From: Cyanidioschyzon merolae
Taxonomy: Eukaryota
Length of the DNA stretch: 64,000 bases
NCBI GenBank assembly: GCA_000091205.1
Contig: AP006499.2
Strand: one strand, 5' to 3'
The position numbers were made by a program, and so were the translations under genes. The notes beneath the pieces are model-generated. The model did not search any database. It worked only from the letters and a program-made list of their open reading frames with translations, and was not told the origin of the DNA. Every line of letters starts with the position of its first letter. Position 1 is the first letter of the stretch. Below are positions 9,475 through 60,617 of the stretch, one piece after another.

Positions 9475-11098
9475 GAAGATCCGCGACGAATTCGCACCAA
9501 TTCAAAGCGTACAATTCAACTTGCACGCATTCGGGCAGCTAGCTAAAGGACAAGTTGCGTGCTTGAGGGCCCGCCTCGTGGATCAGCGGTTTCCATTCGA
9601 GGCGCACCCCGTACTGCTGTTTATCCGTGGAAGCGCTCTTGTCCACCAAATCGAGTGGCTATCAGGTTTCCCTCCTACCCGGATCCTTGCTGTCTTTCAC
9701 TGACCTGCAACGTCCGTGCTTAGGCAAGGAACAGCAGCCCGCGCGAACCCCCAGCAAATCAACACGAGCGCACCTGAACGTGGACACTGCTCTGTACCAG
9801 TCGCTGTCCACGGTGGAAGCACGAGAGGCCGCCCCCAGCTGCTCATCTGGATACCCAGTGCTACCAAACTGCAGTGCAGGTGCTGGGGCACACACAAAAA
9901 GTCTGTCAGCCTCGACACGCCAACAGAGACGCGAAACCGAAGCCGGAAAGTGTGCAAGGTGCCCGTGTGGCACACCTGGCAAGGCGCAAGGACAACGCCG
10001 CCTAAGCGTTTCGAGAACACCACTTCCTAGTTGTTTTTTCAACAAGCGTACCAGCACGGGGTTTGCTTGCACATCAACAACTCGTCCGGGGTTACCCGCC
10101 CCAGCGAGACCTCCAAACCGCTGTCGCCGTTGCCGTGACCCAACCTCCCAAGGCGCACCGGCTGCTCCACTGCGTTGACAACACCGACTCGTCGCTTTGC
10201 AAGCGAGTCGTCGCGCACGCTGCGGGTCAGGTGCAACACGACGTATTGACCCCGGCTTTTTTCTCATTGTTTTCCTGCTTCAACCAAGTGACCGGGTCAC
10301 TGCAAAGCATGACGAATAGGGGCGGTTGGACGGCGAAGGGCTCACAAACAGAAGCACTACGCAGTACGAGAAACGACCACAACAACGACAACGAGCAGCG
10401 TCGGGCGCGCGAAACCTCTCCTTCCAGCGCTGGGACTGGTCAGACCGTGCCGGTTTTTCAGAGCGCACTCGTTGAGCAGCTCATGCGCCAACGCTGGACA
10501 GAGGTGCTCGCACTCTGGCAACGGCAGAGGCAACAGGCAGAGCGACAGGAAGTGGTCGTTTACAGCGACGCAACACCGGCGTGGAAACAGGCCTCCAAGT
10601 CGTTGACGCGGCCACGCTTCCCGGACCTGGTGCAGCAAGGGCTCCAACGTCAGCAGCAAAGCGTCAAGTCACTGGAAGCGGCAGCGTCGCTGACGCCTTG
10701 ACGCGCTGCGGACTGCGTTCGACGACGGTGCTCGTAAAGCGGCTAGTCGACAACGATGACGACACTGGGCAACCGCTGAGGCGACTCGGATACCTAGCGC
10801 CTTTCGCGCTGTAGCACTGACCATGTGTCTGCTTGGAGCGATACCGCTTTGAAGGGAATCGTCTGCTCGTTGAAGTACGCTTCAAACTGGGCTCGGATCG
10901 TGAATGTTCCTTGTCCCGGAGAATCCTCGCTGTCGATGCTAAGCAGCGGTGCCTCGTCTCTGCTGTAGCGGTTGCTGTGTTTCAGCGACGGTCTGCGTCT
11001 CTCGTGCATGGTATGCGATAGCTCTCGCTGTCCATCCGTTGCAACAGTGCCGCGGGTCTACGACTACTGCTGCTACTGCTGCAGATGATATGCTCATC

Positions 11099-12001
11099 TC
11101 ATGCATCCTTCCTGTTCCGTAGATGCCAATCTATGGCGAAAATGCAGCGAGCGAGCTGCTGCACCGCTAGACTGCCGCAAGCGTAGATCGCTCCAATCCA
11201 CAGTGGAATATGACACCAAACTTCAGGATGAGCGTAGTGGTACAGATGGAGCCCATCAATGAGCCAGAGTTCGACGAATGGACCCAGCATCGCGGTGCTT
11301 ATCATGACGCCAAACTCCGCAGCAGTGGAGCTCTCCAGTACCCAGCACTGAACTGGAAGCAAGCTCGATAGTACGAGGGCGATCATAGCCGTACCCAAGT
11401 GTCCGCTGCCGTCTAAATAAGCGCTCAGCCAGTACTGAAAGGTAAATAGCGCCACGCCAGCTGCTGTTCGCACGACGAGTTCTGGGCGAAACGGAGTCTG
11501 GCGGGACTGGAGTCCCAGACGCGCCAGCATCGACCCAGCCACGCCAAAGAGAATCGGTGTCCACCAGGTAAAGCCGACGGCGGTCTGAAAGCCGACGTGA
11601 ACGTTCCAGTTCACTTTGTGGTACTGGAGTGTACCGTAGGTCGTATGAAACGCATCCAACAGCGGTCCATATACGGTGCTCAAGAGCGCTGTCAGAAGCA
11701 CTGCACGATTGGCTGCACTGCCAGTCTCACAGGGTAGAGAAGGCTCAGTGATCAGGGGTGTTCTGAGTCTGAAACTTTTAAAAAACGTTGCATGTCGATG
11801 CTCATCGCTGCAACAGCGCACCAAAGGTACTGTACATCGAACGCTATGTCTCCGAGGCCAGCGCTTGCCCAGGCCTGACCACAGACAAGCCCCGACGCGT
11901 CTCTTTCGGGGGCGAAGCGCTGGCTCTGGTCGACAGACGCAGTCTACTACGAACAGCAGCGTCTCTGGAACTGAGCCTGCAAGCCGGTGCGCGGTGTACA
12001 T
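11099..12001 (-). CDS. INSIG-like (insulin-induced gene family) polytopic ER membrane protein, 300 aa
   Basis: The C-terminal ~200 aa are collinear with INSIG TM helices. [14 protein letters not shown] matches [27 protein letters not shown] matches SAWWVPPCCGTAS, and the helices [31 protein letters not shown] and [17 protein letters not shown] follow in order. The only in-frame ATG upstream of TM1 is at 11999-12001, which gives a 97-aa Arg/Cys-rich N-terminus. The family call needs HMM confirmation. Confidence 0.45.
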
Positions 12002-12845
12002 GAACTCCCGAGCCGCAGACCAGCTTGAACTAGACGGTTTGCCCGGAACACCCCCAGACTTTTATCGAGAGCGACAGAGGTCGCGCGTTGAGCGGTACCA
12101 GTCGCCGGCCGGTGCCCCGCTGCAGTGTTCGGTGCAGGTGCAGACTACGCAAGAGCACCCGCTTTGGACGTCACACGTGTGGAGCGGGGCTCGCGCTCTT
12201 GCCGACACCTTGTGTTGGCAGCCCGAGCTGATCGCGGGTAAGACCGTATGTGAACTCGGTGCAGGAGCTGGCCTGGTCTCGATTGTAGCGTTTCTAGCGG
12301 GTGCGGATCAGGTTGTCGCGACCGACTACCCGGATCCGGAAATACTCAACAGCCTAGAAAGCAATATCCGAGAGCATACGGCGAATAGCTGCAGTTCTGA
12401 AACAGTCAAAAGAGCCAGCCCAAAGGTCGTACCATATCGCTGGGGCGATTCGCCCGATTCTCTTCAACGATGTACTGGCTTGCAGCGTTTCCAAGTCGTA
12501 TTGCTAGCGGACCTGCTGAGCTTTCATCAGGCGCACGATGCACTCTTACGTAGCGTGAAGATGCTCTTAGCGCTGCCGGCCAATGATCCCACCGCCGTCG
12601 CACTGGTGACATTCACTCACCATCGCCCGCACCTTGCGGAGCGCGATCTTGCTTTTTTTCGCCTTGTGAACGCAGACGGAGCACTCATCGCTGAACCGTG
12701 GCTGTCACCGCTGCAGATGGATCCGATGTTCCCGGACGATCCCGGGGATGTCTGCATCAGGGGTCAGGTGCACCGCTGGCGCCTGCGCTGGCGCTCTGCG
12801 GCGAGCGCATCTGCTAATATCCCTGCTCATGCACGGAATGAGTGA
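12000..12845 (+). CDS. Methyltransf_16-type (FAM86/METTL21/Nnt1-like) SAM-dependent protein-lysine methyltransferase, 281 aa
   Basis: ATG at 12000-12002; the longer track ORF from 11676 has no upstream ATG. It carries the family motifs [12 protein letters not shown] and the SAM-binding motif [11 protein letters not shown] followed by [17 protein letters not shown]. The stop codon at 12843-12845 lies inside the first unit of a 68-bp tandem array. Confidence 0.7.
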
Positions 12846-13110
12846 CCTCGAGAAGCGCTATGCTGTATGCATTCGACACGCAAGCTTCTACGGCTACTCG
12901 TGTTGATGAGTGACCTCGAGAAGCGCTATGCTGTATGCATTCGACGCGCAAGCTACTACGGCTACTCGTGTTGATGAGTGACCTCGAGAAGCGCTATGCT
13001 GTATGCATTCGACACGCAAGCTTCTACGGCTACTCGTGTTGATGAGTGACCTCGAGAAGCGCTATGCTGTATGCATTCGACACGCAAGCTTCTACGGCTA
13101 TTCGTGTTGC
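12838..13110. repeat. minisatellite, 68-bp unit x ~4 (atgagtgacctcgagaagcgctatgctgtatgcattcgacacgcaagcttctacggctactcgtgttg)
   Basis: Four head-to-tail copies at >95% identity. Unit 1 begins 5 nt before the methyltransferase stop codon, so unit 1 holds the last two codons and the stop and the remaining units form the 3' flank/UTR. Confidence 0.9.
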
Positions 13111-17496: not shown

Positions 17497-20400
17497 TCAT
17501 CTGCGCTTGTCGTCGCTCGCTGGGCAGCGCGTGAGGCCGTAGGCGTACGGACCTCGCACCCCGCCGTGCGCTCGACGATCCCACTGGCCAGTGACCTCTA
17601 GTCCAAGCGTATTCCGCAGAAAGTGCTTCATTTTCGCAACAGTTAAAACGTGACCGAGGCAACGGCTTTTCTGTCGTTCATACGAGCGGCTCCTTTCGGA
17701 GGTCGTCGAATCCTCGCAAGATGTTCCTGCAGCAGCTAACTCTGCTTTGAGCGCGCGCAAGCGAACAAAGTCCGTATGTGGTCCGAAAACCGTATTCGGT
17801 GTGAAACGATAGTGCTGCATCAGGAAGCGCGCGAAGCAGTGAAACGGTTGGTTAGGTTGCAGCGCTATCGCTGCCAATATCTCTTCGCGTTCCGCTACAC
17901 CGAGCATGCTCGCTCGCGTAGGATTGCGCTGGCCTCCACGTCGCCGTTTCTGTGGCTGCGCTGGTTCCAGGGTCACGCTCTGCGCACTCGTCGTGATAGG
18001 CGAGAGCTCCCGACCAATGTCCGCAGTCTGGACACGCTCCAGCGGGTCATTCCATGCTCGCAACTGCTCGTTTGCCGTTGCCGATGCTTGTTCCTGGTTG
18101 GCGGCAGCATCCTCTGGACCAGTTACCCAGCGGAGAAACTCATTGAGTTGCTCGGGACGCACTACACTCAGTTGCGAAGACGACCCCGAAGAGCGTCCGC
18201 CAGGCTGCATCGCACCAACTTCAGACGCTCCTGCGTCCGCACGTTCGATCCAGGAGGGCGCGTAGCCTCGTCGTTGTCGTTGTCGGCTTTCTGGCACCAA
18301 CGCTGCTGCTGTATGTACACTGCCAATGCCGAATGCTCGACGACTGTGGTTACCATAGGAAAGCGACTGAAGAGCGTTGTGCTCGACGGTCGGGGCGAGC
18401 TCCTCAATGATGGTCGTTGAGCCCCTTGAAAAGCGATCATGAAGTGCGTATGGCGTTCCATTCGTGAAAGAGAACGTTTCCATCCCGGAATCGTCCGAAT
18501 CCGATGCAGATTGCTCAAGCCACAACTGCGGCTGTTGCAGATCAATTAAAGACCACAGGGATCGGGTTGGTTGTCGCAGTACAAATACACGCCGCATGAG
18601 GTCCATGGAGTCGAGTGCTCGCGCTCGAGCCGTCCGCGAGTCCACCACCGGATGCGCATAGCAAGAGCCCAGCGCGATACCCGCTTGCGCAAGCACTGAA
18701 GCTGGCGCTCGCCACGGACGATGGACGTAACACGTAGGCAGTGCGGCCAATTCGGGTACCCAGCGCTTCACGTACTCACCATGGGGATCTTCTCTGAGCC
18801 CAAACGTGATCGGATTGACGATACACGCAAACGGGAACGCATCGGTGTGGCAGCCTGCCGTCCACTGCCACCCGAGCGTCTGACAGGCTATGTCCCCGTC
18901 GAGAACATGATCGTAAAGAAAGCGGAGACCATGCTGCCACGGAATGAGAAGGTACTTGGTCAGGAAGCCGGCGATCATGAAACGAATGCGATTATGCAGG
19001 TATCCAGTGGTACGCAACTCCCGAATCGCTGCGTCAATGATGGGATACCCGGTTTGGCCGCTTCGCCAAACCTCGAGCATGCTCTGATCGTTCCAGCGCC
19101 AAGGAAAGGCGCGGAATTCGGGCAGTAGCGGCTCTTCGAAGGCCTGTGGATTGTGAAAGAGCAGGTGATACGCGAATTCTCGGAGGCACATGTTTTTCAG
19201 GAACGCCTTCACCGCGCTGATGGTCTGTTGTGCATCTGCTGCATCGGTGTGGGTACGTGTGTTTGCCGCGAGCGCCTCGCCTGCTGTAGCGTGACGCTCA
19301 CGGTTCAGGAGCGCATGCCGTGTGCTCCTTGGAGCCGCTTGATCGGTACCACCACGACCTCCGTCGTCGTTGTCATCTGCTTCATCACCATTATTATTAT
19401 TATTATCGTCGTCGTCGTCATCCTCATGATCGTAGAGAAAGTAGGTCGTGCCACTGGAGCCTCGTGGTCGGTTCACTTGAACCCGAAGCGGAAACATCGG
19501 CGCTCGCTGCGGCTGATAACCGGGAACTGCAGCAGTAGCAGTAGCAATAGCAGTAGCATCCATGGAGTGAGGTGTTGCACTGATTCGGTGTGGCGACTCC
19601 AGGTAACCGTTCTGCTCCCTCGAATGCGCTGGTATTCCATTCCCTAGGGAAAGCGCGCTAGGCGCGTCCGACACGATGTCAGCCATGATTGCTGCATACA
19701 GCTGCCGCGGGCTAATCTCACCGAAACGAACATGCATGGAGAGGCGGCTCGTGCCGTCGAGCGCACAACGAGACTCTCGACGCCCGAATTTGGGATAACG
19801 CTCTCGGAGAAACCTTGACAACGTAATCCACGCTGCTCGCTCACCGACAAGCGGCCACATGCATTCCATCTGGGCACACCATTCCGGACTGAGATCAGAG
19901 ACCAGCTCCAGCTCATGAATCTCGACATGGGAAACGCGTTGCCGTAAACCAGGCAGCGTCTGCAGCCTCAATGGCGCTGCTACAGGTGGGGGCGGTTTCG
20001 GGAAAGCGAGCCACTTTTCCATGAAGGGGTGAAACTCATTGAATGGCTCACCGTTGTCTTGAGCAAGCTCCCACGGCTCCACAAGAAGTTCCGATTTGAA
20101 GCTAACGAGTTCAACATTCCAAACAGCAAGGCGTTGTTCCAACGTTCGGTCCACTTCTGCGGCACCGATATCGTAGCAGCGGTTGAAGTAGACTGCGCTC
20201 GCATTCGTTTCCCGCGCCAGCTCCACAATGCTTTCCACGAGGCTCCCCTGCAGAACCACCAGCCGCGCATCTTCGCCGTAGCGGTGCGCGAACTCCCGGT
20301 CCAGCGCCAGCAGCGACTCTCGCAGCCGCCAGCGCCCTGCTCTGCCAGGTTTACTCATCCACGGCAGTTGCGGGTTCCAAACGTACACAGGAACCACCGG

Positions 20401-20643
20401 CATACCCGTTTCTGCAGCCGCACAGAAGGCAGCATGATCATCTATTCGGAGGTCGTGCCCCCGGTACCATACCAGTATGGGGCGCTGTGTCGCGCCCTGC
20501 GCTGCAGCCACTGCGAGCGCTGGTGTACGTCCCGGTGGCGGATGCGCGTTCACCTCCCGCCCCGCTTCGAGCAACGGGGAGCTGCTCAAAGCAAGCCACG
20601 GACACTCCTCTCCACTAGTTTCTGAAGGAGGATACGCGGGCAT
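17497..20643 (-). CDS. cryptochrome/photolyase-family flavoprotein, ~1048 aa, with a large internal low-complexity insertion and a ~400-aa C-terminal extension
   Basis: The first ATG is on the reverse strand at 20641-20643 (the track start is GTG). The N-terminal alpha/beta photolyase domain reads ILVWYRGHDLRIDDHAAF...PVVPVYVWNP. The FAD-binding domain reads TGYPIIDAAIRELRTTGYLHNRIRFMIAGFLTKYLLIPWQHGLRFLYDHVLDGDIACQTLGWQWTAG, as in class I CPD photolyases and plant-type cryptochromes. A ~130-aa disordered insert lies between the domains and contains HEDDDDDNNNNNGDEADDNDDGG, encoded by (AAT)5(GAC)n. The long C-terminal tail is cryptochrome-like. Confidence 0.85.
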   Translation of the reverse strand: MPAYPPSETSGEECPWLALSSSPLLEAGREVNAHPPPGRTPALAVAAAQGATQRPILVWYRGHDLRIDDHAAFCAAAETGMPVVPVYVWNPQLPWMSKPGRAGRWRLRESLLALDREFAHRYGEDARLVVLQGSLVESIVELARETNASAVYFNRCYDIGAAEVDRTLEQRLAVWNVELVSFKSELLVEPWELAQDNGEPFNEFHPFMEKWLAFPKPPPPVAAPLRLQTLPGLRQRVSHVEIHELELVSDLSPEWCAQMECMWPLVGERAAWITLSRFLRERYPKFGRRESRCALDGTSRLSMHVRFGEISPRQLYAAIMADIVSDAPSALSLGNGIPAHSREQNGYLESPHRISATPHSMDATAIATATAAVPGYQPQRAPMFPLRVQVNRPRGSSGTTYFLYDHEDDDDDDNNNNNGDEADDNDDGGRGGTDQAAPRSTRHALLNRERHATAGEALAANTRTHTDAADAQQTISAVKAFLKNMCLREFAYHLLFHNPQAFEEPLLPEFRAFPWRWNDQSMLEVWRSGQTGYPIIDAAIRELRTTGYLHNRIRFMIAGFLTKYLLIPWQHGLRFLYDHVLDGDIACQTLGWQWTAGCHTDAFPFACIVNPITFGLREDPHGEYVKRWVPELAALPTCYVHRPWRAPASVLAQAGIALGSCYAHPVVDSRTARARALDSMDLMRRVFVLRQPTRSLWSLIDLQQPQLWLEQSASDSDDSGMETFSFTNGTPYALHDRFSRGSTTIIEELAPTVEHNALQSLSYGNHSRRAFGIGSVHTAAALVPESRQRQRRGYAPSWIERADAGASEVGAMQPGGRSSGSSSQLSVVRPEQLNEFLRWVTGPEDAAANQEQASATANEQLRAWNDPLERVQTADIGRELSPITTSAQSVTLEPAQPQKRRRGGQRNPTRASMLGVAEREEILAAIALQPNQPFHCFARFLMQHYRFTPNTVFGPHTDFVRLRALKAELAAAGTSCEDSTTSERSRSYERQKSRCLGHVLTVAKMKHFLRNTLGLEVTGQWDRRAHGGVRGPYAYGLTRCPASDDKRR

Positions 20644-23600
20644 CACACATGCAGCGTCAAGTTCCACAAAGCACCGCTGACGTCCTCGTGTATCGACGGG
20701 TGCTGTTCGCGCGCACCTTGAACCTGTATAAAGCAGGTACCCGCAAGCACTCGGAACAAACCTACCACTTTGTCGTTACGAAGTCTACAAGCGACCAGTA
20801 GCGTACGACAAGTGTACCAGCACCCAAGTGCCTGCTTGATTGTCCCGGAAACCTGATAGCACAGAAGCCTTCCGTTTCGGACACCGGTTTGGAGGGGTCA
20901 GCTGCGACCAGCACTACGAGCACCACCAGATAATCGATCATATATGGACATTGAGGACGTCGAGGTCGCGATGCAGCGCTGCTGCCGCCGCTGCCGCTGC
21001 GCAAGCGATCATCGACTGCCCGTAACACGATGCGTAGGATACCTATGTGCTGGTGCAGTGGAGGCTGCACGTGTCGGTTGCTATGGTCACGTCTGGTGCA
21101 TGTGGGGCAATGAATTTGGGTGTAGGAATCGTGTATGGAGCCTAGGTTCTCCAAAAATCTTGGACAAGTTGCAATGAGGGGTAACGGATCTAGGTGTCGT
21201 TGGAGGGTGCTTGGAGGTCATTTGTCGGGGTGCTTGTGTGTCGCTCCTTGAGCGCTGGCGTTCGATACATCACCGGAATCAAGATGACTCATGACGCTCT
21301 TGAACAGCGGTTCGTAAAATAGCTGATATCGTGATGCAGAGCATAGGTACAGGCCCCAGGCTTTTCCGTTCTTGATGTGGAGCGTGCTCGAATCGCGCAT
21401 GCTTCGAGTTTTCTGTCTTTCTGGTTCATGACGGCGCATGTGTTGCTGGAAGAACGACGAACAAAACTGGACGTCATGTCTCGGCAATTTGTTCACCAGC
21501 TCATATCGATCGTTCACTGAACGTGTCTCGTCGAATCATCGATGCCTTTTCGAGCCACACCTGCTTGGATCCTCGTACATATCCACGGACGACATTCCGC
21601 AGCAGCGTGGCATTTCTGACGCGGGGCGCTTCTGGAGGCCCCCGTCTGCTCGGTAGACATCTGGAATAGGTCAAGGACGCGCGCTTGAGTCATCGAAGCG
21701 ACTGCTTCTGGTGGAGCGCAAGTCACCACCACCATCCACGAAAAAGGCGTAGACGGATCGAGAAATCTCGATCTCGTGTCTAGCCTGGATTCTCCTTGCG
21801 CGGCTTGTTTCATCATGGGAAACACCACGTTCCAAAAAGATTCTTTATCAAATGGAACATCGTGCTTTTGCGTGTGCCGCTTACAGGTTACGCATCGAAG
21901 GCATCGCCCGGAACAAGCCAGGAATTGCCGTGGAAGGCACCAGAGGCGCCAACGAATGAAGACACCAACCAGAGCCCTCTGTAGCCGTCAAAGGCATGTA
22001 CCGGGATGTGAAGCAAGCGTTCACCTGCCATAGGACGACGCTCGGAGGAGCAGAAGGTGCGGTTTATGTATTAGAACATCTGACCAGCGTCAAGTGTTTT
22101 CGCTGCGAAGCGCGCTCCGAGGCTATCTATATCGAAGATGCATATTGCAAGCGACGCGTAGATTGGAACTACTGCTTCTGCATGAAATGCGTCGACAGCA
22201 TCCATACGCGGCGAATTCGGGACTGGAACGTATCCATCAATACCCTTCGACTGATGATAAGGGGGCCGGAGGCACGCGAGAGACAGGCGTCTGGAAAGCC
22301 GATGAATCGAGAGAGACGAAAACGTAGCATTTGCACAAGAATTCCGCAGCGGCTGGTATCGGAGACAGTGGCAGGAGTCCCAAACCTTACAGTGCGCACC
22401 TGCGTTACGAGGCCCATTCCGTCGGAAGCTCAGGCTGGTCTGGGCGCGTGCACCATGATGATGATGACGACGACGCGCTGGTTGCCACAATGATGTTGCT
22501 CTGGACATTTCAGCTACAGAAAAACGTGCAAAACCTGATAACCAGCCACAGATGCATGGACACGAGTCAAGGCTCTCGAATCTTGCTTGCCATATCAATG
22601 TCTGCGAAAAGCTTGTACGAACACCGCATCTCCCGGGGCGAAGGAGTTCGAGCGCTGCACATGTCCTCGACTGGCCGGGAGGCATGCTGCAGGCTCGCGA
22701 CACCCAGACGATAGCTGCTGCTGCTGCTACTGCATGCGTTCTCGGGAACATCTTGTAGGTATATTTCAGCGCGAAACGCATGCGTCGACGCTCACACCAC
22801 CTCCCTGTACAAGAGCAGAGCACTTTGACGAATAAGTTTCACAGCGTACCGAGGCCTTGTCCGGCGAATCGACTCGAAAAGCGCGCTTGTTTGCTCTTGC
22901 CCCGCATCGGATCGCGAGTTATCCAAGGTTCCGATTCTTCATGTTCGAAAGCGCTGCGCCTCTGCATGAGTTACTCGGGAAAATAGATGACTTTATACGG
23001 CAAACAGCGTCAGCATTTGATTTGTCTAGGACGAGGTCTGCAAACGACACCTGCGTGGATGTCACTGCAAGCGCAGCGTTACAAACCTCAACAGCTTCTG
23101 GTACCGGCAAGTGAGCGCCCCAGGGCCAACACAGCTGGTTCACGGCTCTCGTTATCCAAGCATACAGCAGGACGCTTCCGCCCCACACGAGTGATTGCAT
23201 GCAAAGTACAGCACAGTCACGATGAAGGCACACTCGTTGCGCTACTGCTTGCGAGAGCACACGGCAGCAGGGCCAACCGTCACGTAGAACACCCACGCTT
23301 GATCAAGGAAGAGCACGCCGCATCGCTCGTGAAACCGGCATCCGCTACAGAAACACCCCAGAAAGAAAAGTTATTCTATTCACTGAAACGGATCGGATAA
23401 AGGTACGCCATCCGATCAGTGCACAAGCCAGCGTAGCGCAGCCTGGTATGCAGTTGGCCCGCAACGCGTTACGCATCTGCAAGGCGCATACCTGTCCGTC
23501 AAGGAAAAGAACACGCAGCAGCTTGTATAGCACTAGCGCAGAATCACCAGGATCCAGACCGTAACAGGCAGCGTTAAACGTAGCACAGCACCGCGTGATG

Positions 23601-23860
23601 AAAGCAAAGCATCCACCACAGCTTCCGGTTTGCACAGCACAGGTGGTATTGCCGCTTCTGCGAAGACGCCCAGTGCGTCTGTTCGCTGCCGCAGCTTCAG
23701 TGCGTCGCTATCCAGCACAGCGACGCTCATCTGACTCCTGCAAAAGACAACAGCAAGCCGAGGTGACATCGGGAACACCTCCCGCCGGCGCTCGTATTAC
23801 TGTTAATTCGTTATGCTGTCCTGCAAAACACCAACCAGTTGCAAGAGGCACACGCCAGAC

Positions 23861-24685
23861 GTCCCACTGCCACTAGTCATCAGCGTTCTACTGGGTCCGA
23901 GTGTCACCTGCTCAGGCACGTGTGCTTGCAACCCTGTCATTTTCAGATCTTTAGTACCGTACCACTAGTCATCAGCGTTCTACTGGGTCCGAATGTCACC
24001 TGCTCAGGCACGTGTGCTTGCAACCCTGTCATTTTCAGATCTTTAGTAACGTACCACTAGACATCAGCGTTCTACTGGGTCCGAGTGTCACCTGCTCAGG
24101 CACGTGTGCTTGCAACCCTGTCATTTTCAGATCTTTGGTACCGTACCACTAGTCATCAGCGTTCTACTGGGTCCGAGTGTCACCTGCTCAGGCACGTGTG
24201 CTTGCAACCCTGTCATTTTCAGATCTTTGGTAACGTACCACTAGTCATCAGCGTTCTACTGGGTCCGAATGTCACCTGCTTAGGCACGTGTGCTTGCAAC
24301 CCTGTCATTTTCAGATCTTTGGTACCGTACCACTAGTCATCAGCGTTCTACTGGGTCCGAGTGTCACCTGCTCAGGCACGTGTGCTTGCAACCCTGTCAT
24401 TTTCAGATCTTTGGTAACGTACCACTAGTCATCAGCGTTCTACTGGGTCCGAGTGTCACCTGCTCAGGCACGTGTGCTTGCAACCCTGTCATTTTCAGAT
24501 CTTTAGTAACGTACCACTAGACATCAGCGTTCTACTGGGTCCGAGTGTCACCTGCTCAGGCACGTGTGCTTGCAACCCTGTCATTTTCAGATCTTTAGTA
24601 ACGTACCACTAGACATCAGCGTTCTACTGTGTCCGAGTGTCACCTGCTCAGGCACGTGTGCTTGCAACCCTGTCATTTTCAGATC
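23861..24685. repeat. satellite-like tandem array, 92-bp unit x 9 (ccactagtcatcagcgttctactgggtccgagtgtcacctgctcaggcacgtgtgcttgcaaccctgtcattttcagatctttagtaccgta)
   Basis: Nine head-to-tail units with a few variable positions (tagtaccgta/tggtaacgta, agtcatc/agacatc, ccgagtg/ccgaatg). Each unit carries one perfect CACGTG (E-box/G-box) palindrome. The array ends ~200 bp upstream of the apyrase ATG. The 73-84-aa ORFs inside it (23839.., 24085.., 24290.., 24637..) are repeat artefacts. Confidence 0.92.
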
Positions 24686-24884
24686 GCTGCCCTAGCTTTC
24701 CTCAAGTAACGCGCTACCCCAAGGCATTCTTGGAGCGCCCCACGAGCACGAGCGCGCGACATGTCCTATCGCCGCTTGACGGTTACGCAGCCAACGCGTT
24801 AGGGCAAGTGTGTCTCAGCTGGTGCACTGTCAGAGGGCGAGGCTCAGACGTGAACCGCCAGAGGGCTTGCTTTATGTATAGTTT

Positions 24885-26450
24885 ATGCTAATACCGCAGG
24901 GCAAGTCCTTTCAAAGAGGCTCCCGTTCAGTCTCTGCCGGCTCTCTGGACAGCGACAGCGGCGGTTACGGTCGAGGTGCAGTACGTCCCAGCGAGCGGCG
25001 AGTGTCGCGTTCTCGTTGGTCAGAGATGGTTGGCAGTGCCCATGATCGACACCAAAGCGGTTATAGGGGAAGTTCGAACTCTCTTCCGACGGCCAGTAGC
25101 CGGCAGAGCAGTGTCGACCTTGAAACTGGTCGTTCGCTCCTGGACGATGCCGACGAGAACGACAAGGAGCGTCGGGGCCTCTGGTCCCTGGGTCTCGGTT
25201 TTGCGGCGAGCTCTGCGGCGAGTTCGTTGCCATCTGGTTCGGCTACATCGCTTTCAGGTACGAACGGAACGCCTCCCTCGACGAGCATTGTCGAATGGCT
25301 GCGACAACGCTCGCTGCGTGGCCTCCTGTACTGGCTTCTCGCCCTGTGTTGTATTGGCCTTCTGCTGGACTACTCGGTGAATCACCTGCTGCATCACAGC
25401 AGTTTCTTAGGAAATCATGGGCATGACTATAGAAACCGGGACATGTATCGACCCGACAGACCATGGGGACCGTTTGTTTTCGGGGTTATCACGGACATGG
25501 ATCGATTGTCTGCCGTACCTCACCGCTCGAAAGCATCCAAAAGCGAGTGGATTGCGTATTTCCGTCGAGGTGAACTGGAATACCGTGTACACGACGCTCG
25601 TGGAAACCGATCAGCTGAAGGTGTTTGGACTATCCGCTGGCACGAGCCTGCTCCCGGTGTTCGCTTGACAACGCAACTGAGCGAGGCCGGACGCGGTATG
25701 GAACTCAGCGAACTCGTTTACTGGCGAGGACGTTATCTGACGCCCTGCGATCGCACCGGCATCGTGTACGAAATTCTGAACGCTCGCTTACCGAAACCCT
25801 ATGTAGCATCGCGTTACGTGCTCGCTACCGGTGACGGTGAACACGCGAAAGGTTTCAAAGCGGAGTGGATGACCGTTCAGCATGGTGCACTATTCATTGG
25901 CGGACACGGCCGCGAAACCACGGATGCACACAACGGCACTCATGTGGTGAACGACGATGCGCTCTGGGTGAAACGCATCGCTCCAGATGGTGTAGCGTTC
26001 GTGGAGCACCTCAACTGGACGAACCGTTATGAACGGCTACGTCGAGCAGCGGGCACCGCATTTCCGGGCTACCTGGAACACGAAGCGGTTGTCTGGAGTG
26101 AACGACGCTCCCAGTGGCTCTTTCTTCCACGACGGTTCAGCGTCGAGCCATATGATGAACGAGCAAACGAATTTCGCGGTTGGAATGGTTATCTTTTAGC
26201 AGATGAGAACTTTCAGAGCATTCAGCTCAAACACCTGAATGTTCGTGTCGATGGTGAGCGCGGCTTCTCGTCTGTGAAGTTTCTGCCGTTTACCGGTGAC
26301 CGGCTTGCCATTGCGTTGCGAACGATCGAACACGAGGACGAGGGTGTGTATCGAACGTATCTGACAGTGTTCCAGGTCGACGATGGTCGCGTCCTCTTGG
26401 CCGATACGCCAGTCGGTGAGCACAAGTACGAAGGCATTGAATTTTTATAA
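24885..26450 (+). CDS. CANT1-type (Cimex-family) calcium-activated nucleotidase / apyrase, type-II membrane protein, 521 aa
   Basis: ATG at 24885. A ~150-aa Ser/Arg-rich cytosolic N-terminus is followed by a TM anchor (LLYWLLALCCIGLLLDY). The luminal domain has characteristic apyrase blocks ELSELVYWRGRYLTPCDRTGIVYEI, KGFKAEWMTVQHGALFIGGHG, LWVKRIAPDG and GVYRTYLTVFQV. Confidence 0.75.
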   Translation: MLIPQGKSFQRGSRSVSAGSLDSDSGGYGRGAVRPSERRVSRSRWSEMVGSAHDRHQSGYRGSSNSLPTASSRQSSVDLETGRSLLDDADENDKERRGLWSLGLGFAASSAASSLPSGSATSLSGTNGTPPSTSIVEWLRQRSLRGLLYWLLALCCIGLLLDYSVNHLLHHSSFLGNHGHDYRNRDMYRPDRPWGPFVFGVITDMDRLSAVPHRSKASKSEWIAYFRRGELEYRVHDARGNRSAEGVWTIRWHEPAPGVRLTTQLSEAGRGMELSELVYWRGRYLTPCDRTGIVYEILNARLPKPYVASRYVLATGDGEHAKGFKAEWMTVQHGALFIGGHGRETTDAHNGTHVVNDDALWVKRIAPDGVAFVEHLNWTNRYERLRRAAGTAFPGYLEHEAVVWSERRSQWLFLPRRFSVEPYDERANEFRGWNGYLLADENFQSIQLKHLNVRVDGERGFSSVKFLPFTGDRLAIALRTIEHEDEGVYRTYLTVFQVDDGRVLLADTPVGEHKYEGIEFL

Positions 26451-27661: not shown

Positions 27662-30190
27662 TCAGAGAGCGGGTGGCAGTTTCGACATGTCCAGTGGCGC
27701 CAGGGAGAGCGGTGGCGAGTACCTGCGCACAAGCGCGGTACGCCCTGTTGTCGTTGTCGTCGTCTCCGTTCCGGTGAGCGCACTCGGGTCCGCAGAGCCG
27801 GCATCCGCGATACCCGCTGCGGAACAATGCTCCAGTGCAGTCGTGCCTGTGGTTGGCGATACCGTCGCGTTTCGCCCTGGTGGATACTGAGGCGTACCCG
27901 CCGATTCCAGTCGCAGCCGCAGTTCCCGATCAATACGCACCAGTTCCTGGTACACCTCTGCCATCGAGGGTCGCTTCTGTGGCTGCTCCTGTAGACAACG
28001 ATTCACGAGCTGTACATACGCGCGCTTATCCTCGTGCTGCTTGCCGGCAGGCACCAGCGGCATACTCAGGCAAAGTCCTTGAAAAGCCACCGCCACCAGC
28101 ACCTGCATCGGCTGTAGACCAGCAAACGGAATGCGTCTGGTGATCACCTCCCAGGCGACCACACCAAAAGAATACACGTCGCACTTCTCGTTGTGCGGTT
28201 CGTTACGAATGACTTCGGGAGCGGTCCATTCGGGCGTGCCTCCGGCAATGCGACTCGTGAGAAACGTTCGATGTTTCGCACGGGAGAGCCCAAAGTCCGA
28301 GATTTTCACCCGCCAGTTCTCGCTAACGAGGCAGTTCATGGACTTGAGATCCCGATGGATGATCGGTGGATGGCAAGCGTGAAGATACGTCATGCCACGA
28401 GCAGCGTCCTGCATCATGGCTAGGCGCCGACGCCAGGGTAGCCGCACGCGGCGCGACGGGTCTGCAGGCGTGTGCAGCAGGTCAAAGAGGCTCCCACGCG
28501 GCATCAACTCGATAACGATGCAGAGGTTCGGTGGTGCTACCACAGCACCGAAGAACTGCACGATGCACGGGTGACGCAGGTTTGCCATGATGTCGCATTC
28601 GGCGAGAAACTCGTCGAGTTCCTCCGCGGACAGCGCTCGATCGAGAAGCGAGCGTTTCACTGCGACCTCGGTGCCTCGCCAGAGCGCTCGATGCACCGAG
28701 CCAAAGCCCCCCGCCCCAATATGTTCCAGAATCTGCAGCTCGGACTCGTCAATACACCAGCGACGACGAGCGCTCACGAGCGACTGCTCAGGATCAGGCT
28801 GTGTACATCGATGACCGACTAGAACGGGGGCCCAGGCTGGCGACGATGGACCCCGGAGGCTGCCACTACTGCCACCGGCACCACCGCCATCACCACCACC
28901 GGCACCTCGTCGCTGTTGTGGTGTTCCCAGGGCGCTCGTGACCGTATTCGCCTGTTGTTGCTGTTGCTGTGAATCCGCAATCGTTGGCGTCGTATCACCC
29001 GTTTCGGAATCATTGGCGATATCTTCGTCCATGGGGACAGGCTCGGGTCGGAAGAGCTCCTCACTGGATCGACTCCGACCCGAGGCTCGTTCCACGTCGG
29101 TGTCGCTGGCAGGCTTGGCGTTGGCGGCCTTTTCGCGTTCGCGGCGTCGCTGACGCAGGTACCAGACACCAACGCCGCTGCCCAGCAGACAAGCGCCCAG
29201 CACAGGTAGCACAGTTGCCACCGCGATGACCCAGGGCGGAGCACCTCCGGTGCCCGAACCTGGCCCCTGGAGCGTGCTGGTCGTTGGTGCGACACCCAGC
29301 GTTTCAACAGTCCCGCCAACGAGTGTAATCGGTACACCAGCTGTCCCGCTCATGGCACCGGAATTGACGTAGTTCTGGAGACCCTGCGTCGCGTTCTCCG
29401 CTTCAACCCCGCGAGGAACAATTGCGGTATAGGTAGCGTATACGGAACCTGCGTACAAGTTCGTCAGATAGAACTGCGAGGCATCGAGTATGCCGTTTGT
29501 GCTATTTGCCATCCACCGTTTCAGCTGTTCGCTGTAGAGGCTGGTAAACTCCCCCAAGGTCAGATTACGAATGTAGAGCGTCGCCTCCATGTACAAATAG
29601 TTGCTGGCAGGCGAGGGCATTGCTGGTGTTGGTACCGGACGCGCTTGTTTCTGGCCAGTCAGGAAGGTGTCGGGCGTAGGCGACGCACTTGGTGCCATAT
29701 ACACTGGAATGTTCTCGTCGACGAGCGTAACGTTCACCGCCGCCGCTCGCGACAGCGCACCACTGTCAATCCAGTCCGTCAGCGCTATGCGGACGGAGCT
29801 CGCGATTCGTGTAGGTACCTGAATCATAAATACTGCAATCCGAACCCGAGGCTCATAGTTCGTGAGCGTCACGGGCGGCGCGTGGTGCACCGACGGATAG
29901 TGCCCCAGAATGAACTGCTGCAGGCCGGTTTCCAGCCTTAACATATCGTTCTCGTTCACGCTGCCGGAAGATGCGCTCACATTTAACCGTACCAAAAGCA
30001 GCTCATCGTCTCGTGGCCAGTTTGATGGTGTCGGGCTCGGCTGCGGCAACGAACTCACGAGTAACGTCGGCGTCAAGGAAACGGGCTCCACGAGCGGCAA
30101 CGTCGAGGTGGCACTCGCTGGCCCCGAGCACACCCCCAGGAGCGCTAAGATGACAAGAAAAACGATAAGGACCGCACGACTATTGGTCAT
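27662..30190 (-). CDS. single-pass transmembrane receptor-like Ser/Thr protein kinase (TKL-like), ~842 aa
   Basis: The likely start is the ATG on the reverse strand at 30188-30190, giving a signal peptide MTNSRAVLIVFLVILALLGVCSGPASA (the track ORF extends upstream to 30310). The ~380-aa extracellular domain has many NxS/T sites. The TM segment is PWVIAVATVLPVLGACLLGSGVGVWYL. The cytoplasmic kinase has GAGGFGSV...VAVK, HRDLKSMNCLV, DFGLS and GTPEWTAPE. A Gly/Gln-rich juxtamembrane linker is encoded partly by (caa/cag) repeats. Confidence 0.8.
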   Translation of the reverse strand: MTNSRAVLIVFLVILALLGVCSGPASATSTLPLVEPVSLTPTLLVSSLPQPSPTPSNWPRDDELLLVRLNVSASSGSVNENDMLRLETGLQQFILGHYPSVHHAPPVTLTNYEPRVRIAVFMIQVPTRIASSVRIALTDWIDSGALSRAAAVNVTLVDENIPVYMAPSASPTPDTFLTGQKQARPVPTPAMPSPASNYLYMEATLYIRNLTLGEFTSLYSEQLKRWMANSTNGILDASQFYLTNLYAGSVYATYTAIVPRGVEAENATQGLQNYVNSGAMSGTAGVPITLVGGTVETLGVAPTTSTLQGPGSGTGGAPPWVIAVATVLPVLGACLLGSGVGVWYLRQRRREREKAANAKPASDTDVERASGRSRSSEELFRPEPVPMDEDIANDSETGDTTPTIADSQQQQQQANTVTSALGTPQQRRGAGGGDGGGAGGSSGSLRGPSSPAWAPVLVGHRCTQPDPEQSLVSARRRWCIDESELQILEHIGAGGFGSVHRALWRGTEVAVKRSLLDRALSAEELDEFLAECDIMANLRHPCIVQFFGAVVAPPNLCIVIELMPRGSLFDLLHTPADPSRRVRLPWRRRLAMMQDAARGMTYLHACHPPIIHRDLKSMNCLVSENWRVKISDFGLSRAKHRTFLTSRIAGGTPEWTAPEVIRNEPHNEKCDVYSFGVVAWEVITRRIPFAGLQPMQVLVAVAFQGLCLSMPLVPAGKQHEDKRAYVQLVNRCLQEQPQKRPSMAEVYQELVRIDRELRLRLESAGTPQYPPGRNATVSPTTGTTALEHCSAAGIADAGSADPSALTGTETTTTTTGRTALVRRYSPPLSLAPLDMSKLPPAL

Positions 30191-30350
30191 TGCGACAGCA
30201 TACCGAGAAAACAGAACCCTTGCTTGTTTTTTGCTGCCGCCACTCGAGTACAGCCACAGCCAGCGAACGTTCCCAGTTTGGGTCCGCGCATCGAGTGAGA
30301 AACTGACCACGATTGTGGCGCTGCTGCCTCGATGCGAATGCGCCGCTGCG

Positions 30351-30720
30351 ATCCCAGACGTCTCCGGGCGCCTCGTACTGTTTCCTGATCAGAATTGTAT
30401 AGTAATAAACAATTATAGCAATATATATCTACCTTTGGTGTTGGGCGATTGCGGACAGCACCGTCGAGGAACCATCCCAGACGTCTCCGGGCGCCTCGTA
30501 CTGTTTCCTGATCAGAATTGTATAGTAATAAACAACTATAGCAATATATATCTACCTTTGGTGTTGGGCGATTGCGGACAGCACCGTCGAGGAACCATCC
30601 CAGACGTCTCCGGGCGCCTCGTACTGTTTCCTGATCAGAATTGTATAGTAATAAACAATTATAGTCATATATATCTATCTTTGGTGTTGGGCGAATGCGG
30701 ACAGCACCGTCGAGGAACCC
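30351..30720. repeat. tandem direct repeat, 123-bp unit x 3, in the 5' flank of the receptor-kinase gene
   Basis: The three units (30351, 30474, 30597) are >95% identical: atcccagacgtctccgggcgcctcgtactgtttcctgatcagaattgtatagtaataaacaa(t/c)tatag(c/t)(a/c)atatatatcta(c/t)ctttggtgttgggcgattgcggacagcaccgtcgaggaacc. Each contains an AT-rich TATA-like core. The array lies 160-530 bp upstream of the kinase ATG on the reverse strand. Confidence 0.9.
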
Positions 30721-39835: not shown

Positions 39836-40035
39836 CAATGCATGGGATCTGGTGTTTCCGGAAGCACGCTCGTTGTAGGTAGTCGTGGAATCGACGTCTG
39901 GTACGCATGAGATCTGGTGTTTCCGGAAGCATGCTCGTTGTAGGTAGTCGTGGAATCGACGTCTGGTACGCATGAGATCTGGTGTTTCCGGAAGCATGCT
40001 CGTTGTAGGTAGTCGCGGAATCGACGTCTGGTCCC
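39836..40035. repeat. tandem repeat, 65-bp unit x 3, 340-540 bp upstream of the UGGT start; each unit contains the palindrome TTCCGGAA
   Basis: Three units start at 39846, 39911 and 39976 (gatctggtgtttccggaagc(a/c)(c/t)gctcgttgtaggtagtcgtggaatcgacgtctggtacgcatga). Because 65 is not a multiple of 3 and the unit is stop-free on the reverse strand, it generates the spurious N-terminal extension of the UGGT ORF and ORF 39675..40196. Confidence 0.9.
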
Positions 40036-47367: not shown

Positions 47368-47737
47368 GGTGACCAGCAAACGGGCACCGCAACGTCCAGT
47401 CCTCAGTTGCAGCCTCCGAAGCAGCTTACTCAAACGTACGCTAAGGTTGTGCCAGGCAACGCGCCGCTGCGTCCAAGCCATCGCGCCGGCGTCATCGCCG
47501 AAATATGCATATATTCGTACAAAACGCTCTCGTGCCATGAAGCACAAGCGCCACCATACCCCTTTCGGGCCGCTCCGTTCATCATGAGAAACAAGTACCT
47601 AATATAGGACGTTTCTGTACGCGCAGCTCTACTACGCACCCAGCGTTTGCCCGGCGCTCTTACGGACAGGTACGCCAGCGCCCGGCACCGATGGTGACGA
47701 CTCCTATCTCGTACGCTAGAGGCGCTGGAACGCGCTG

Positions 47738-48385
47738 ATGCGAGACTCCCCGCACTGGTGGATTCAGCTTGAAAAGTCTCTGCAGCGGAATAGAGTCCAT
47801 GCTTTTGCACGCTACTTCCAGGTGGCCACAGTCCGACCAGACGGTCGCCCCGCGAACCGTACTGTAGTTTACCGTGGTACGGTGGAGCGAGGCAAGGACG
47901 CTGCACCCTACGTTACCTTCGTATCAGACCTGCGCTCTGGCAAGCACAAAGACTTGGAGAAGTGTACGTGGTGTGAGATCTGCTGGTACATGCCCGTTAC
48001 ACGTGAACAGTACCGAATCACTGGCTGTGCAGAAGTCGTCGGTGCTTCTGGCGCAGACGCTTTCCTCAGAGAGGCTCGGAAAGAGGTCTGGTGCCGACTG
48101 ACGCCGCCTCTGCAGGCGCCGTTTCTGGCGCCAACCCCAGGTCTTCCGCTACGAGTCGCCAGCGCCTCGAAACCAGAGATCAAGCTCGACGATGCAGGTG
48201 TCCCTGATTCGTTCGGTCTCGTGCTGGTTTTGGCAACTCGTGTGGATTACTTGCAACTCGCGAAATCCAATGGACCACCACCACATCGAACTTGTTACTA
48301 TCGGAATATCGGAGCGCCAGATGTCAAAGATGCGAACGCTGCAACAGAAGTTGAAGTTTGGGAGATGGAGGCACTGCAGCCGTGA
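47738..48385 (+). CDS. pyridoxamine-5'-phosphate-oxidase-like FMN-binding split-barrel protein (PNPOx-related, Alr4036-type), 215 aa
   Basis: ATG at 47738. The N-terminal block RNRVHAFARYFQVATVRPDGRPANRTVVYRG is typical of the PNPOx-like fold. The ORF is uninterrupted. The family call is by pattern only. Confidence 0.5.
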   Translation: MRDSPHWWIQLEKSLQRNRVHAFARYFQVATVRPDGRPANRTVVYRGTVERGKDAAPYVTFVSDLRSGKHKDLEKCTWCEICWYMPVTREQYRITGCAEVVGASGADAFLREARKEVWCRLTPPLQAPFLAPTPGLPLRVASASKPEIKLDDAGVPDSFGLVLVLATRVDYLQLAKSNGPPPHRTCYYRNIGAPDVKDANAATEVEVWEMEALQP

Positions 48386-49802
48386 AAAATTTGCGAGTTT
48401 TCTGCGCAGCGTACCACGCGCGTCTTCGTAGATGCGCTCTCCCACAGAGCCACGCATGGACACGATGGACCTGCTCTTGAGCTGGCTTGATAAACTGCTA
48501 TTGCGCCGTCGGGGCGGATGCACACATGAGCCAGGGGGCCAAACACATCGTTCCGAGGCAGGCTGCGCTGGAGCATCAAGGCTCCGAAATCTCTTACCAT
48601 TCTCGAGGCTATCGTCTCGAGCGTTGCGAAACGACAGCTCTAGCGCATCCAGCGTCGTAGGAAGCACGCAAGAGCGGCTCAGTATGGAACCTGGGTCGCT
48701 GGATCGGACCTGTAGCTCCACGGGGAGGACCATTTCGGAGCTTGTGGGATAGACGGGTATTTGAAGGATGTCAAATTTCTCTTCTTTGGTCGGCGGCAGG
48801 ACTCGCGTGACCGGGTATTCAGGTCAGATCCGTGCCTGTCGTTCCATGCGAAAGACTGGCGGGCACGCGGGTCGCTCCAATGACCGACATCGCCTTGTTC
48901 TTTCAGCGGTGATTACGCGTGCCTGCGAGCCAGGCGCTGGTCTTGGTTCCAAAGAGCAACTTGGCCCACAAGAGCCGGGGATAGGCGGTTGCAGCCATCC
49001 AAGAGCATACAATGTAATGAAAACATTTCACCAAATTACCGTACGAGTAGCCTTTAGGATGATTGGTTTCGACCAACAGGCAGCTTTCAATGCAATGCAA
49101 TGCAATGTCAGGCACGCTCACAGGACCTGACCACCGCAGTCAACAGTGCTCTGTTGCCGGGCGTTTATCTTAGAGCCTTTGCTATCAGAACCTTTGCTGT
49201 TATTCCCTGTTCCGATCCTGTTTTTAGTGTATGCCTCGCTTCGGCTTGCGGCGATGCACTATAACACGGCTGCACTCGAATGGTCCCCCAGTGGATCAGG
49301 CCCATGCGTCGAGCGCGTCGTGAAAGACGGCCACAAACACGAATTCCTGCAACACTTTCCAGACCAATGCTGTATGCGACATGCCTTCGCAGCACGCTCC
49401 TCGTGAGCCAGTCTTATGCCTGGTGACCGTTGCTCCCCGGCGCATACCGACATCTTCTACACCAGATGCGGATCATGCTCCAGGCGCTTTTCGAGCGCTC
49501 ATCCGATCCTCATTCTGCGCAAGTGCGTCAGGCTACCGCAAAATATGCGTATGGAATGAAAAACATCCATACATTCATGACCAAGCTCTCAGCATACTAA
49601 ACTAGCGTTCCTCAATCGTCCTGAGGGTTTACGCGGATTCCCGTTCCTTTCTAACTAGATATGTGTATTTTTCAGCCAGTCATGTCGAGTGATTGAAGTC
49701 GAGAGAGCGCACTCCCAGCTTTCACGATTCTGCATACACGTTACCAAGTTCGGCATACACCGTTCCTCTTGACTGACGACCAGCTCCGACGGTAACAGAG
49801 TA

Positions 49803-50336
49803 TCACTGGCTTTTAGGCCGGTTCACCGGCAGATGCGGCTTCTGTAAGTACTGCTGGATGCCGCCCTCCATATCCGCTATGACTTTGTATCCCTTTTTGG
49901 AGAGCTCCTCAGCTGCCATAGCACTACGTCTCCCAGAAGCGCAGTTCACGATTAGTTTCCGTTCCAGGTTACCGCCGGTGAGCTTCTCAACCTCACTCAA
50001 AAAGTTCGGATTCGGTACCATTTTGTCTCCCTGCTTCAGCATGTACGGAACGAGCACAGAGTCTGGTGCGTGCACTTCTTGGTATTCCTCTGGAGTGCGA
50101 ACGTCCAAGTGCAGGTCGCACTCGCCACACTGTTTCCGCCGGTGCGCCTCCTCCGGTGAGATTCGCTCTACAATCATTGCGAACGAACGAAACCGCTGGA
50201 ATTGGGGTACAATGCCCCTGCGCAGCAAACCAGTGTATCCCCCGTGCGTCGAGCAAGTAAAAGCCTTTATCCGAGTGCTCGACTCGTGCGACAACCTTCC
50301 CCAACGAGAGACGCTGTAAAGTGTCCCCAAGAACAT
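49803..50336 (-). CDS. single-domain rhodanese / sulfurtransferase-like protein (senescence-associated Sen1/STR16-like), 177 aa with probable targeting presequence
   Basis: ATG on the reverse strand at 50334-50336. The rhodanese domain runs from MIVERISPEEAHRR... and includes the active-site loop CASGRRS with the catalytic Cys. The first ~50 aa are Arg/Ser/Thr-rich and presequence-like. Confidence 0.7.
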   Translation of the reverse strand: MFLGTLYSVSRWGRLSHESSTRIKAFTCSTHGGYTGLLRRGIVPQFQRFRSFAMIVERISPEEAHRRKQCGECDLHLDVRTPEEYQEVHAPDSVLVPYMLKQGDKMVPNPNFLSEVEKLTGGNLERKLIVNCASGRRSAMAAEELSKKGYKVIADMEGGIQQYLQKPHLPVNRPKSQ

Positions 50337-51712
50337 TGTCGCCGTGAATAGTCAGTGTCCGGAGTGCCAGTCCCCGCGGCAGCGTTTCTGGACCGTCGGC
50401 AGCGCAGGGCAACGCCCCTGCAGCAGCAGCGCCTGATGGCCGCAGAGCAGCGCGCTGCTGCTGCTGCTGCTGCTTCTCTGGGAGCGCTCAGGTACGGCAT
50501 AGGTTGCAACATCCTCGTGGATCGAAGCCTGCATCTGTATCTATGTCGGGTTTCAGATAAAAGGGGAGCGTTGAATGGATCATTCTGCTCCTTCATTCCA
50601 AAATTCCGAGCGATTTTGGGTGCACAAAGTCGACAATTGATGTTCGTCAATATGTGGTTACGGATTCAGACGTAGGTTTGGGGTTATTGGTCGTGCTTGC
50701 TGGGTGGATCCGTCGCATCGTTGCCGGTGACATGGGGTTACTTCACGGGAATCCAGATGATTCGCGGCGCTGCTGACCAAAATCTCCTCAAATAAACGAT
50801 ATCATTATCGAGTTTATAGGTTGAGGCCTCCGCTCTTCTCCTGTCGTTGAACGTGGCATGCTTGATGCACACACTCTTCGAGTTTTTGAGCTTTCGTCCC
50901 GATGAAGACTATCGACGTCGTCTCTTGGACTGTTGTTCACAAGCTCATGCCGAGACATCAGTGATGTCCTCACGTCAAATGATCATCGAGTCCTTCCGAA
51001 AGCGAAATCCGCGTCTCTTTGTAACCACCGACAAGGCGATATTCCACAGCAGCGTGATACCTTTCACGGAACATGCTCCTAAAGGCTTCCATTTCTTCTG
51101 TTCCCATCGAATAGGATCTCGCAATCGCACTTGATTCATCGTGGCGATCGCATCGCGTGCAGCGTAGACAAGTCAGAATTTCTCTAAGACTTGTCCAGCA
51201 TCGATTTGCCTCCCCGTACTGGTTTCCAGGTAACAACATCGCGTTCCGCAAGCCTTTATTGGGATGGACAGCTTGCGGTTGCGCGTGCAACGCACAGCCT
51301 AGTCGTCGGTGTGATTGCTTCCAAGGAACACGCAGGCTTCGTAGATAGCATCGGGTGCGGAAGCAGACGAGGGCGTCGTGCATAGTCTTCTGTTCTCGCC
51401 AAGGGCATCCACCCAGCGATAAGGTAAGCTCGTTTGCGACAGAGCGCGGCCCTCAGTGGATGGCAAGGTGTGTTAGACATGCGGGAACTCCAGATCACAT
51501 CAGGGTCATCGCTGTGAAGCGTGCACCGACGCTGTACACCCTGAGACGATAAAAGCAAGCGAAGCGCAGATAACGAGTTTCCCCAGTGCGTGCAATGCGT
51601 CGACAACGAAAGGGACCCGAAATCCGCCATCAATATTCTTCGACTGCTGACAGCGATGCCACAGGCGCGATAAAGACCGGCGTATTCGGCACCAGGAATA
51701 AGAGGTGGCTGA

Positions 51713-60506: not shown

Positions 60507-60617
60507 GCTTTGCAGATGCGACCAGATCGATACCCGCCTGTATTTTGACGTTGTTTTTTGTCTTCATAGCTGCGCAAAGCGGTTTTTTTGTTTCTGGGCG
60601 AGCAACGTGAACGACAT

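Follow-up and report, generated by a model that had tools for sequence, protein, structure and literature searches.

A single-locus 92-bp minisatellite with nine CACGTG boxes upstream of an apyrase gene in Cyanidioschyzon merolae

Clusters of E-box/G-box elements that are bound by bHLH or bZIP factors occur naturally, and the same elements have been multimerised in synthetic multi-copy reporters. In Arabidopsis, the direct repeats located immediately upstream of FWA and SDC attract silencing, and they act through siRNA-directed DNA methylation. Tandem repeats in human promoters tune expression. The same is reportedly true of tandem repeats in yeast promoters (a finding said to be that of Vinces et al. 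in Science in 2009), which are mostly short, AT-rich and nucleosome-excluding. Minisatellites, or VNTRs, have units of ~10-100 bp in arrays of 0.1-20 kb that are locus-specific with unique flanks, and their unit variants are interspersed, in an order that changes from allele to allele; their copy number also differs between individuals or strains.

In a 64-kb stretch of chromosome 17 of Cyanidioschyzon merolae 10D (hereafter the window), we analyzed a tandem array that lies upstream of an apyrase gene, at positions 23870-24685. This array is like a minisatellite in its head-to-tail 92-bp units, its length of 0.8 kb, its presence at a single locus, its interspersed variants and its stable flanks. 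It is unlike the described cases in that it resides in a compact, transposon-poor algal genome rather than that of a vertebrate, and in that length variation among strains is not demonstrable from assemblies. With the promoter repeats that tune expression in yeast and humans the array shares only its position, as a potentially unstable tandem repeat within 1 kb upstream of a start codon; its 92-bp unit, with a G+C content of 51% (range 0.50-0.54), differs from the yeast repeats in both length and composition. Its likeness to clustered E-box enhancers is confined to the core motif, a perfect CACGTG repeated near a promoter, as the C. merolae sites come from whole-unit duplication, their 92-bp spacing is out of helical phase, and the test of conservation failed because the motif is absent from orthologous promoters. 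Like the FWA and SDC repeats, the array consists of direct repeats immediately upstream of a gene, but to our knowledge C. merolae lacks RNAi machinery, so silencing of this type is unlikely here. The array belongs to a well-known kind, as a minisatellite not individually described before, and the tandem repeats of its genome have already been catalogued. The initial annotation had called it a satellite, a label that is too strong for a unit and an array of minisatellite size, given that satellite DNA occupies many loci or forms arrays of tens of kb and that we found one 0.8-kb array at one locus.

Tandem Repeats Finder (TRF) described the array, which is the largest tandem array of the window, as a repeat with a period of 92, 8.9 copies, 97% matches and no indels (score 1534), with a total length of 816 bp. 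A repeat search of the window placed nine copies in register at an exact 92-bp step, so that both methods agree with the nine 92-bp units originally proposed. Given the 92-bp register, the 97% identity and the lack of indels, this repeat is far beyond chance. The extent first assigned to it was 23861-24685; the end is correct, whereas the start is not, as the TRF start is located 9 bp further right and these 9 bp (CGTCCCACT) have only a loose likeness to the end of the unit, in a match that is not significant. When laid out unit by unit, the array is built of nine 80-bp cores (CCACTAGTC...TTTTCAGATC) with eight 12-bp linkers (TTTRGTAMCGTA) between them. The first core (23870-23949, plus strand) contains CACCTG at unit positions 36-41 and CACGTG at positions 48-53, and the first linker (TTTAGTACCGTA; 23950-23961, plus strand) includes positions 84 (A/G) and 88 (A/C), which are variable among units.

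To the left of the first core, the junction sequence (CGCCAGACGTCCCACTG; 23853-23869, plus strand) is the same in every environmental contig that reaches it. This junction may represent a degenerate zeroth linker (ACGTC versus ACGTA), although this match is not significant. No origin of the linker was found in the flanks, as neither flank, in local alignment to the unit, scored better than shuffled sequences. Within 10D, six unit positions are variable (8, 25, 32, 44, 84 and 88), and at position 88 the bases C and A alternate through units 1-6, which amounts to a weak higher-order pattern of 184 bp. The difference from unit to unit, ~1-2%, is similar to the intergenic divergence of 0.6-1.0% between strains.

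The array is separated by a unique 199-bp spacer (24686-24884, plus strand) from the start codon of a CANT1-type apyrase gene (24885-26450, plus strand; 521 aa; Pfam PF06079, E = 8.6e-88), which bears out the earlier placement of the array ~200 bp before the ATG of such a gene. The apyrase ORF is 100% identical to the “probable apyrase” of C. merolae 10D (BAM82281.1 / XP_005538317.1), and comparison with the Cyanidiococcus ortholog shows that conservation of the N-terminus starts at the first Met. The spacer, which presumably holds the core promoter and the 5' UTR of the apyrase gene, has no substitutions in five environmental contigs and has indels at two positions in two of them. A photolyase/cryptochrome gene (17497-20667, minus strand) is divergent from the apyrase gene, and a TKL-type kinase gene (27662-30310, minus strand) is convergent with it.

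The photolyase gene and the array are separated by 3.2 kb of anonymous DNA (20668-23869). When this segment was compared with environmental contigs of ~99% identity, we observed 0.6-1.0% substitutions, versus 0.2-0.5% in the flanking coding sequence, and at the level of sequence the segment appears to behave as non-coding DNA. No Pfam domain was found in any ORF at 20668-23869, and none of the seven ATG-initiated ORFs that we looked up in this segment corresponds to an NCBI-annotated protein; on these grounds we rejected a hidden gene or transposon at this site.

As judged from the window and the metagenome contigs, the 92-bp unit is single-locus. A 24-mer of the unit had nine matches in the window even when 3 mismatches were allowed, all of them inside the array, and a blastn search with a word size of 7 detected no weaker relatives of the unit within the window. 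A 24-mer scan of 241 million metagenome records yielded six contigs, and all six align to the array locus with the same flanks. Seven further contigs, which were fetched independently of the motif by means of a small ORF at 23533-23769, also carry the array at the same site. The initial annotation had named a genome-wide satellite as the result that would overturn its reading; in the window and the metagenome contigs, all copies of the unit instead fall at one locus.

The environmental contigs are ~99% identical to the window, and all of them carry the unit. Many contig breaks fall inside the array (11 of 14 contigs end there), which indicates that the assemblers failed to resolve it. In spanning contigs we counted one core (L001), two cores (L005) or four cores (L011), compared with nine in 10D, but these are short-read assemblies in which collapse of the repeat is likely. 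Because one core without a linker, or an A-A-B-B series, is what a k-mer assembler puts out for longer runs of identical units, we infer that the low core counts are minimal paths of the short-read assembler and are not readable as copy numbers.

The variant bases A8, T25, A32, T44, G84 and C88 are common to the 10D and environmental arrays but are found in different units, and a CA variant at unit positions 31-32 is present in some environmental haplotypes and absent from 10D. Variants that are shared but reordered imply that the array, together with its variants, predates the split of the haplotypes and has been reshuffled since. The array thus has the interspersed unit variants, in an order that differs between alleles, that are typical of minisatellites. 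Reshuffling of this kind fits unequal exchange or gene conversion, and the turnover of units by unequal exchange that had been read from the few variable positions is supported by this comparison of 10D with environmental haplotypes.

From these data, we consider it probable that the array is a near-neutral minisatellite that arose and persists through replication slippage and unequal exchange. The E-boxes would be its passengers, and the array would presumably have no selected function. A piece of local non-coding DNA of ~92 bp would have been amplified head-to-tail upstream of the apyrase gene, either by replication slippage or by unequal exchange between sister chromatids or homologues, and exchange or conversion would still be shuffling the units and making them partly uniform. 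The ancestral piece would have happened to hold one CACGTG and one CACCTG, of which there are now nine each, and the CACGTG boxes would owe their number to this amplification and not to selection for binding sites. Any effect of the array on the apyrase promoter would be incidental, such as the displacement of upstream DNA by ~740 bp, an altered placement of nucleosomes, or the provision of repeated E-box/G-box sites for bHLH or bZIP factors.

A different reading is that the array is a multi-site E-box/G-box enhancer, bound by a single bHLH or by a bZIP factor, and that apyrase transcription is proportional to copy number. Such an enhancer might respond to, for example, light, phosphate supply or ER load, with unequal exchange tuning the number of copies. 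In keeping with this reading, the largest array of the window stops 199 bp short of an ATG that is well supported, and all nine of its CACGTG boxes are intact in 10D, as are those in every unit of related haplotypes. C. merolae encodes one bHLH protein (PMC2839125), and the gene for this protein supplies a candidate factor. Nevertheless, we regard the enhancer reading as unlikely, given the properties of the boxes, the orthologous promoters and the neighboring genes that are described below.

A motif search of the window located CACGTG once per core, in nine boxes at 23917 + 92n. The first box is at 23917-23922, the next seven start at 24009, 24101, 24193, 24285, 24377, 24469 and 24561, and the ninth and last is at 24653-24658, so that the boxes lie 227-968 bp upstream of the apyrase ATG. 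Each core also contains a CACCTG, 12 bp upstream of the CACGTG. The earlier observation of one perfect CACGTG per unit was therefore accurate, with exact 92-bp spacing in nine of nine units. The nine boxes are one hexamer amplified with the unit and not nine independent events, and this copying of one site, as opposed to convergent gains, counts against the enhancer reading. Approximately 1.4% of random 92-bp stretches in the window contain CACGTG. In addition, the unit holds four palindromic hexamers (ACTAGT, CACGTG, TTGCAA and AGATCT) where 1.5 are expected (P = 0.07), which means that several “named” sites could have been singled out.

The boxes were also regarded initially as a periodic, phased arrangement of binding sites. 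They are regularly spaced along the DNA, but they are not helically phased, as 92 bp corresponds to 8.76 helical turns and adjacent boxes are rotated by ~274 degrees, an orientation that does not favor an enhancer of clustered sites.

Outside the array, we observed 10 occurrences of CACGTG in the window, compared with the ~26 that dinucleotide content predicts (z about -3). Under this first-order model, CACGTG is the third most depleted of the 64 palindromic hexamers, after CGCGCG and GCGCGC. Given this scarcity elsewhere in the window, nine copies in 0.8 kb make a striking local concentration, and the avoidance of CACGTG could hint at a functional motif. However, the depletion is gone under a fourth-order model (11.8 expected), so that it may be merely compositional, a matter of pentamer frequencies.

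The integrity of the boxes is similarly open to a plain explanation. We found no unit with a mutated CACGTG, including the units of contigs that had been collected without reference to the motif. Around the box, 30 bp (unit positions 46-75) are free of variants, and for 11 variable sites spread over 92 bp the expected longest gap is ~25 bp. A gap of this size is about what chance would leave, so that the unmutated boxes are unremarkable and the stretch around them does not speak for constraint on the motif.

A lone CACGTG in the GCACGTGT context that it has in the array is found at 21068-21073, ~400 bp upstream of the start of the longest photolyase ORF (20667, minus strand); this is a single occurrence.

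Comparison with orthologous loci also bears on whether the E-box is a feature of the apyrase promoter. The apyrase of Cyanidiococcus yangmingshanensis (L002) is 66% identical to that of C. merolae and the apyrase of assembly GCA_041825655.1 (L003) is 65% identical, and the gene order photolyase / apyrase / kinase / UGGT is kept in both. The spacer between the photolyase and apyrase genes measures 4.2 kb in the window, versus ~1.06 kb in L002 and 0.64-0.77 kb in L003, depending on the apyrase start that is used. The excess in the window is the anonymous 3.2 kb, in which substitutions between strains are 2-3 times as frequent as in coding sequence. No relative of the 92-bp unit was found in the photolyase-apyrase spacers of L002 and L003, and neither CACGTG nor CACCTG is present in these spacers (1061 bp in L002 and 636 bp in L003). 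The absence of CACGTG from two orthologous promoters indicates that the E-box is not a conserved feature of the apyrase promoter, which argues against the enhancer reading. L003 has an unrelated repeat of 130 bp x 2.6 (L003 positions 9697-10029), which ends ~107 bp before the conserved apyrase Met. Judging from these sequences, tandem repeats appear to come and go upstream of apyrase.

The deposited apyrase gene model of L003 is 45 aa too long and reaches the 130-bp repeat or its vicinity.

The order photolyase (minus strand) / CANT1-type apyrase (plus) / TKL-type receptor-like kinase (minus) / UGGT (minus), which occupies 17497-40144 of the window, is common to the genera Cyanidioschyzon and Cyanidiococcus. 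In ER glycoprotein quality control, the function of a lumenal UDPase is tied to that of UGGT, and the linkage of the apyrase and UGGT genes may perhaps not be accidental.

A location close to a start codon is likewise shared by other arrays, and a promoter-proximal minisatellite is ordinary in C. merolae. Ensembl records 3335 TRF features in the 16.7-Mb C. merolae genome, or approximately one per 5 kb (PMC11050394). Using TRF, we found eight unrelated minisatellites in the 64-kb window, and we detected no kinship among these eight and the 130-bp repeat of L003. An array of 123 bp x 3 (30351-30719) is located 161 bp before the kinase ATG (30190, minus strand), and an array of 65 bp x 3 (39840-40032) is located ~345 bp before the ATG of a probable UGGT gene (39496, minus strand). 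Both are unrelated to the 92-bp unit and lack CACGTG, a further point against the enhancer reading. As unrelated minisatellites stand upstream of neighboring genes, the position of the 92-bp array near an ATG is not special. Other arrays, at 4546, 12838 and 46068, are located 3' of genes. With CACGTG missing from two orthologous promoters, a variant-free stretch of chance length and arrays of this kind being routine, the tunable enhancer that was first suggested is not supported by our analysis.

Three adjacent genes (apyrase, kinase and UGGT) are each preceded by an unrelated array, at 160-350 bp from the ATG. L006 has two copies of the 123-bp unit compared with three in the window, which may reflect either assembly collapse or a real polymorphism. 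The minisatellite of 68 bp x 4 at 12838-13109 starts in the last codons of a Methyltransf_16-like ORF (11676-12845, plus strand) and extends over the stop codon of that ORF; the alignment of L005 to this 68-bp array falls into several registers, so that its number of copies may well be different.

An extension of the enhancer reading, that the array is a copy-number-tunable battery of nine CACGTG/CACCTG pairs that is read by the single bHLH (or a bZIP) and that promoter minisatellites are a general source of regulatory variation in this ultra-compact, transposon-poor genome, seems to us quite doubtful. In the literature on C. merolae we found nothing specific on the function of CACGTG or the G-box, on apyrase regulation, on minisatellites or on the neighboring gene under its identifier, and no ChIP or reporter data were found in the literature. 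As a near-neutral minisatellite, the array matters little, being one among the several thousand tandem repeats of a genome that was finished and published long ago. If array length does vary among strains and scale apyrase expression, the result would be of modest importance. Homologous recombination makes C. merolae amenable to genetics, and a tractable alga with one bHLH would in that case be a clean system for the tuning of transcription by promoter minisatellites. If the enhancer reading is true, the array would set the expression of an ER/Golgi nucleotidase that is in conserved synteny with UGGT. Another possible use of the array locus is as a marker for typing strains in environmental populations of C. 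merolae.

We also weighed the reading that the array consists of tandem small RNA genes on the minus strand, such as box C/D snoRNAs, and found it very improbable. Box C/D snoRNAs are present in C. merolae, where they have been reported in introns (bioRxiv 10.1101/2025.12.01.691491), and the minus strand of the unit reads CUGAUGA ... CUGA ... CUGA over ~63 nt, with snoRNA-like spacing. When the whole window was searched at gathering thresholds, and 23700-24900 at E up to 10, no Rfam family reached threshold; the match to SNORD113 is very weak and covers the C box only (15.7 bits versus a gathering score of 36, E = 9.4). The folding energy of single units is no better than that of shuffles on either strand and in two phases (z -0.5 to +0.7), the putative C box is preceded by C where a purine is expected (RUGAUGA), and the putative terminal stem is only 2 bp long, compared with the 4 bp or more that are required. 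Natural variants also break the putative boxes: T>A at position 8 converts UGAUGA to UGAUGU in three of the nine units of 10D, and variants at positions 44, 45 and 76 disrupt the D and D' boxes in other units. We rejected the snoRNA reading on the basis of these variants and the 2-bp stem. No tRNA or tmRNA was found in a scan of the window.

Equally hard to sustain, and in our view highly unlikely, is an origin of the array as a dispersed repeat, as a transposon-derived satellite or as an assembly artefact. Mobile elements can give rise to tandem arrays and repeats are error-prone in assemblies, but every contig with the unit maps to one locus and the window has no other copies. The surrounding ORFs lack transposase or reverse transcriptase domains, and there are no inverted termini at the array; the only inverted repeats are two 14-nt pairs of 86% complementarity, in each of which one arm is in the left flank (23761-23774) and the other, 213 or 489 nt away, is in a unit variant. 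Independent environmental assemblies contain two to four distinguishable units with the same flanks, and the array is therefore not an artefact of the 10D assembly.

A coding repeat, as part of an unannotated protein or of an apyrase 5' exon, has its position next to a gene as its sole support, and we rejected this reading as extremely unlikely because a period of 92 bp is not divisible by three and none of the six frames is free of stops (24-25 per minus-strand frame and 4-8 per plus-strand frame, with a longest stop-free run of 91 codons), while the array has no ORF of at least 100 aa and conservation of the apyrase N-terminus sets in at the annotated Met.

Elsewhere in the window, we observed that the region at 47500-64000 has one ORF of at least 250 aa (54803-55972), compared with the dense long ORFs of the first 47 kb, and that its composition is unremarkable.
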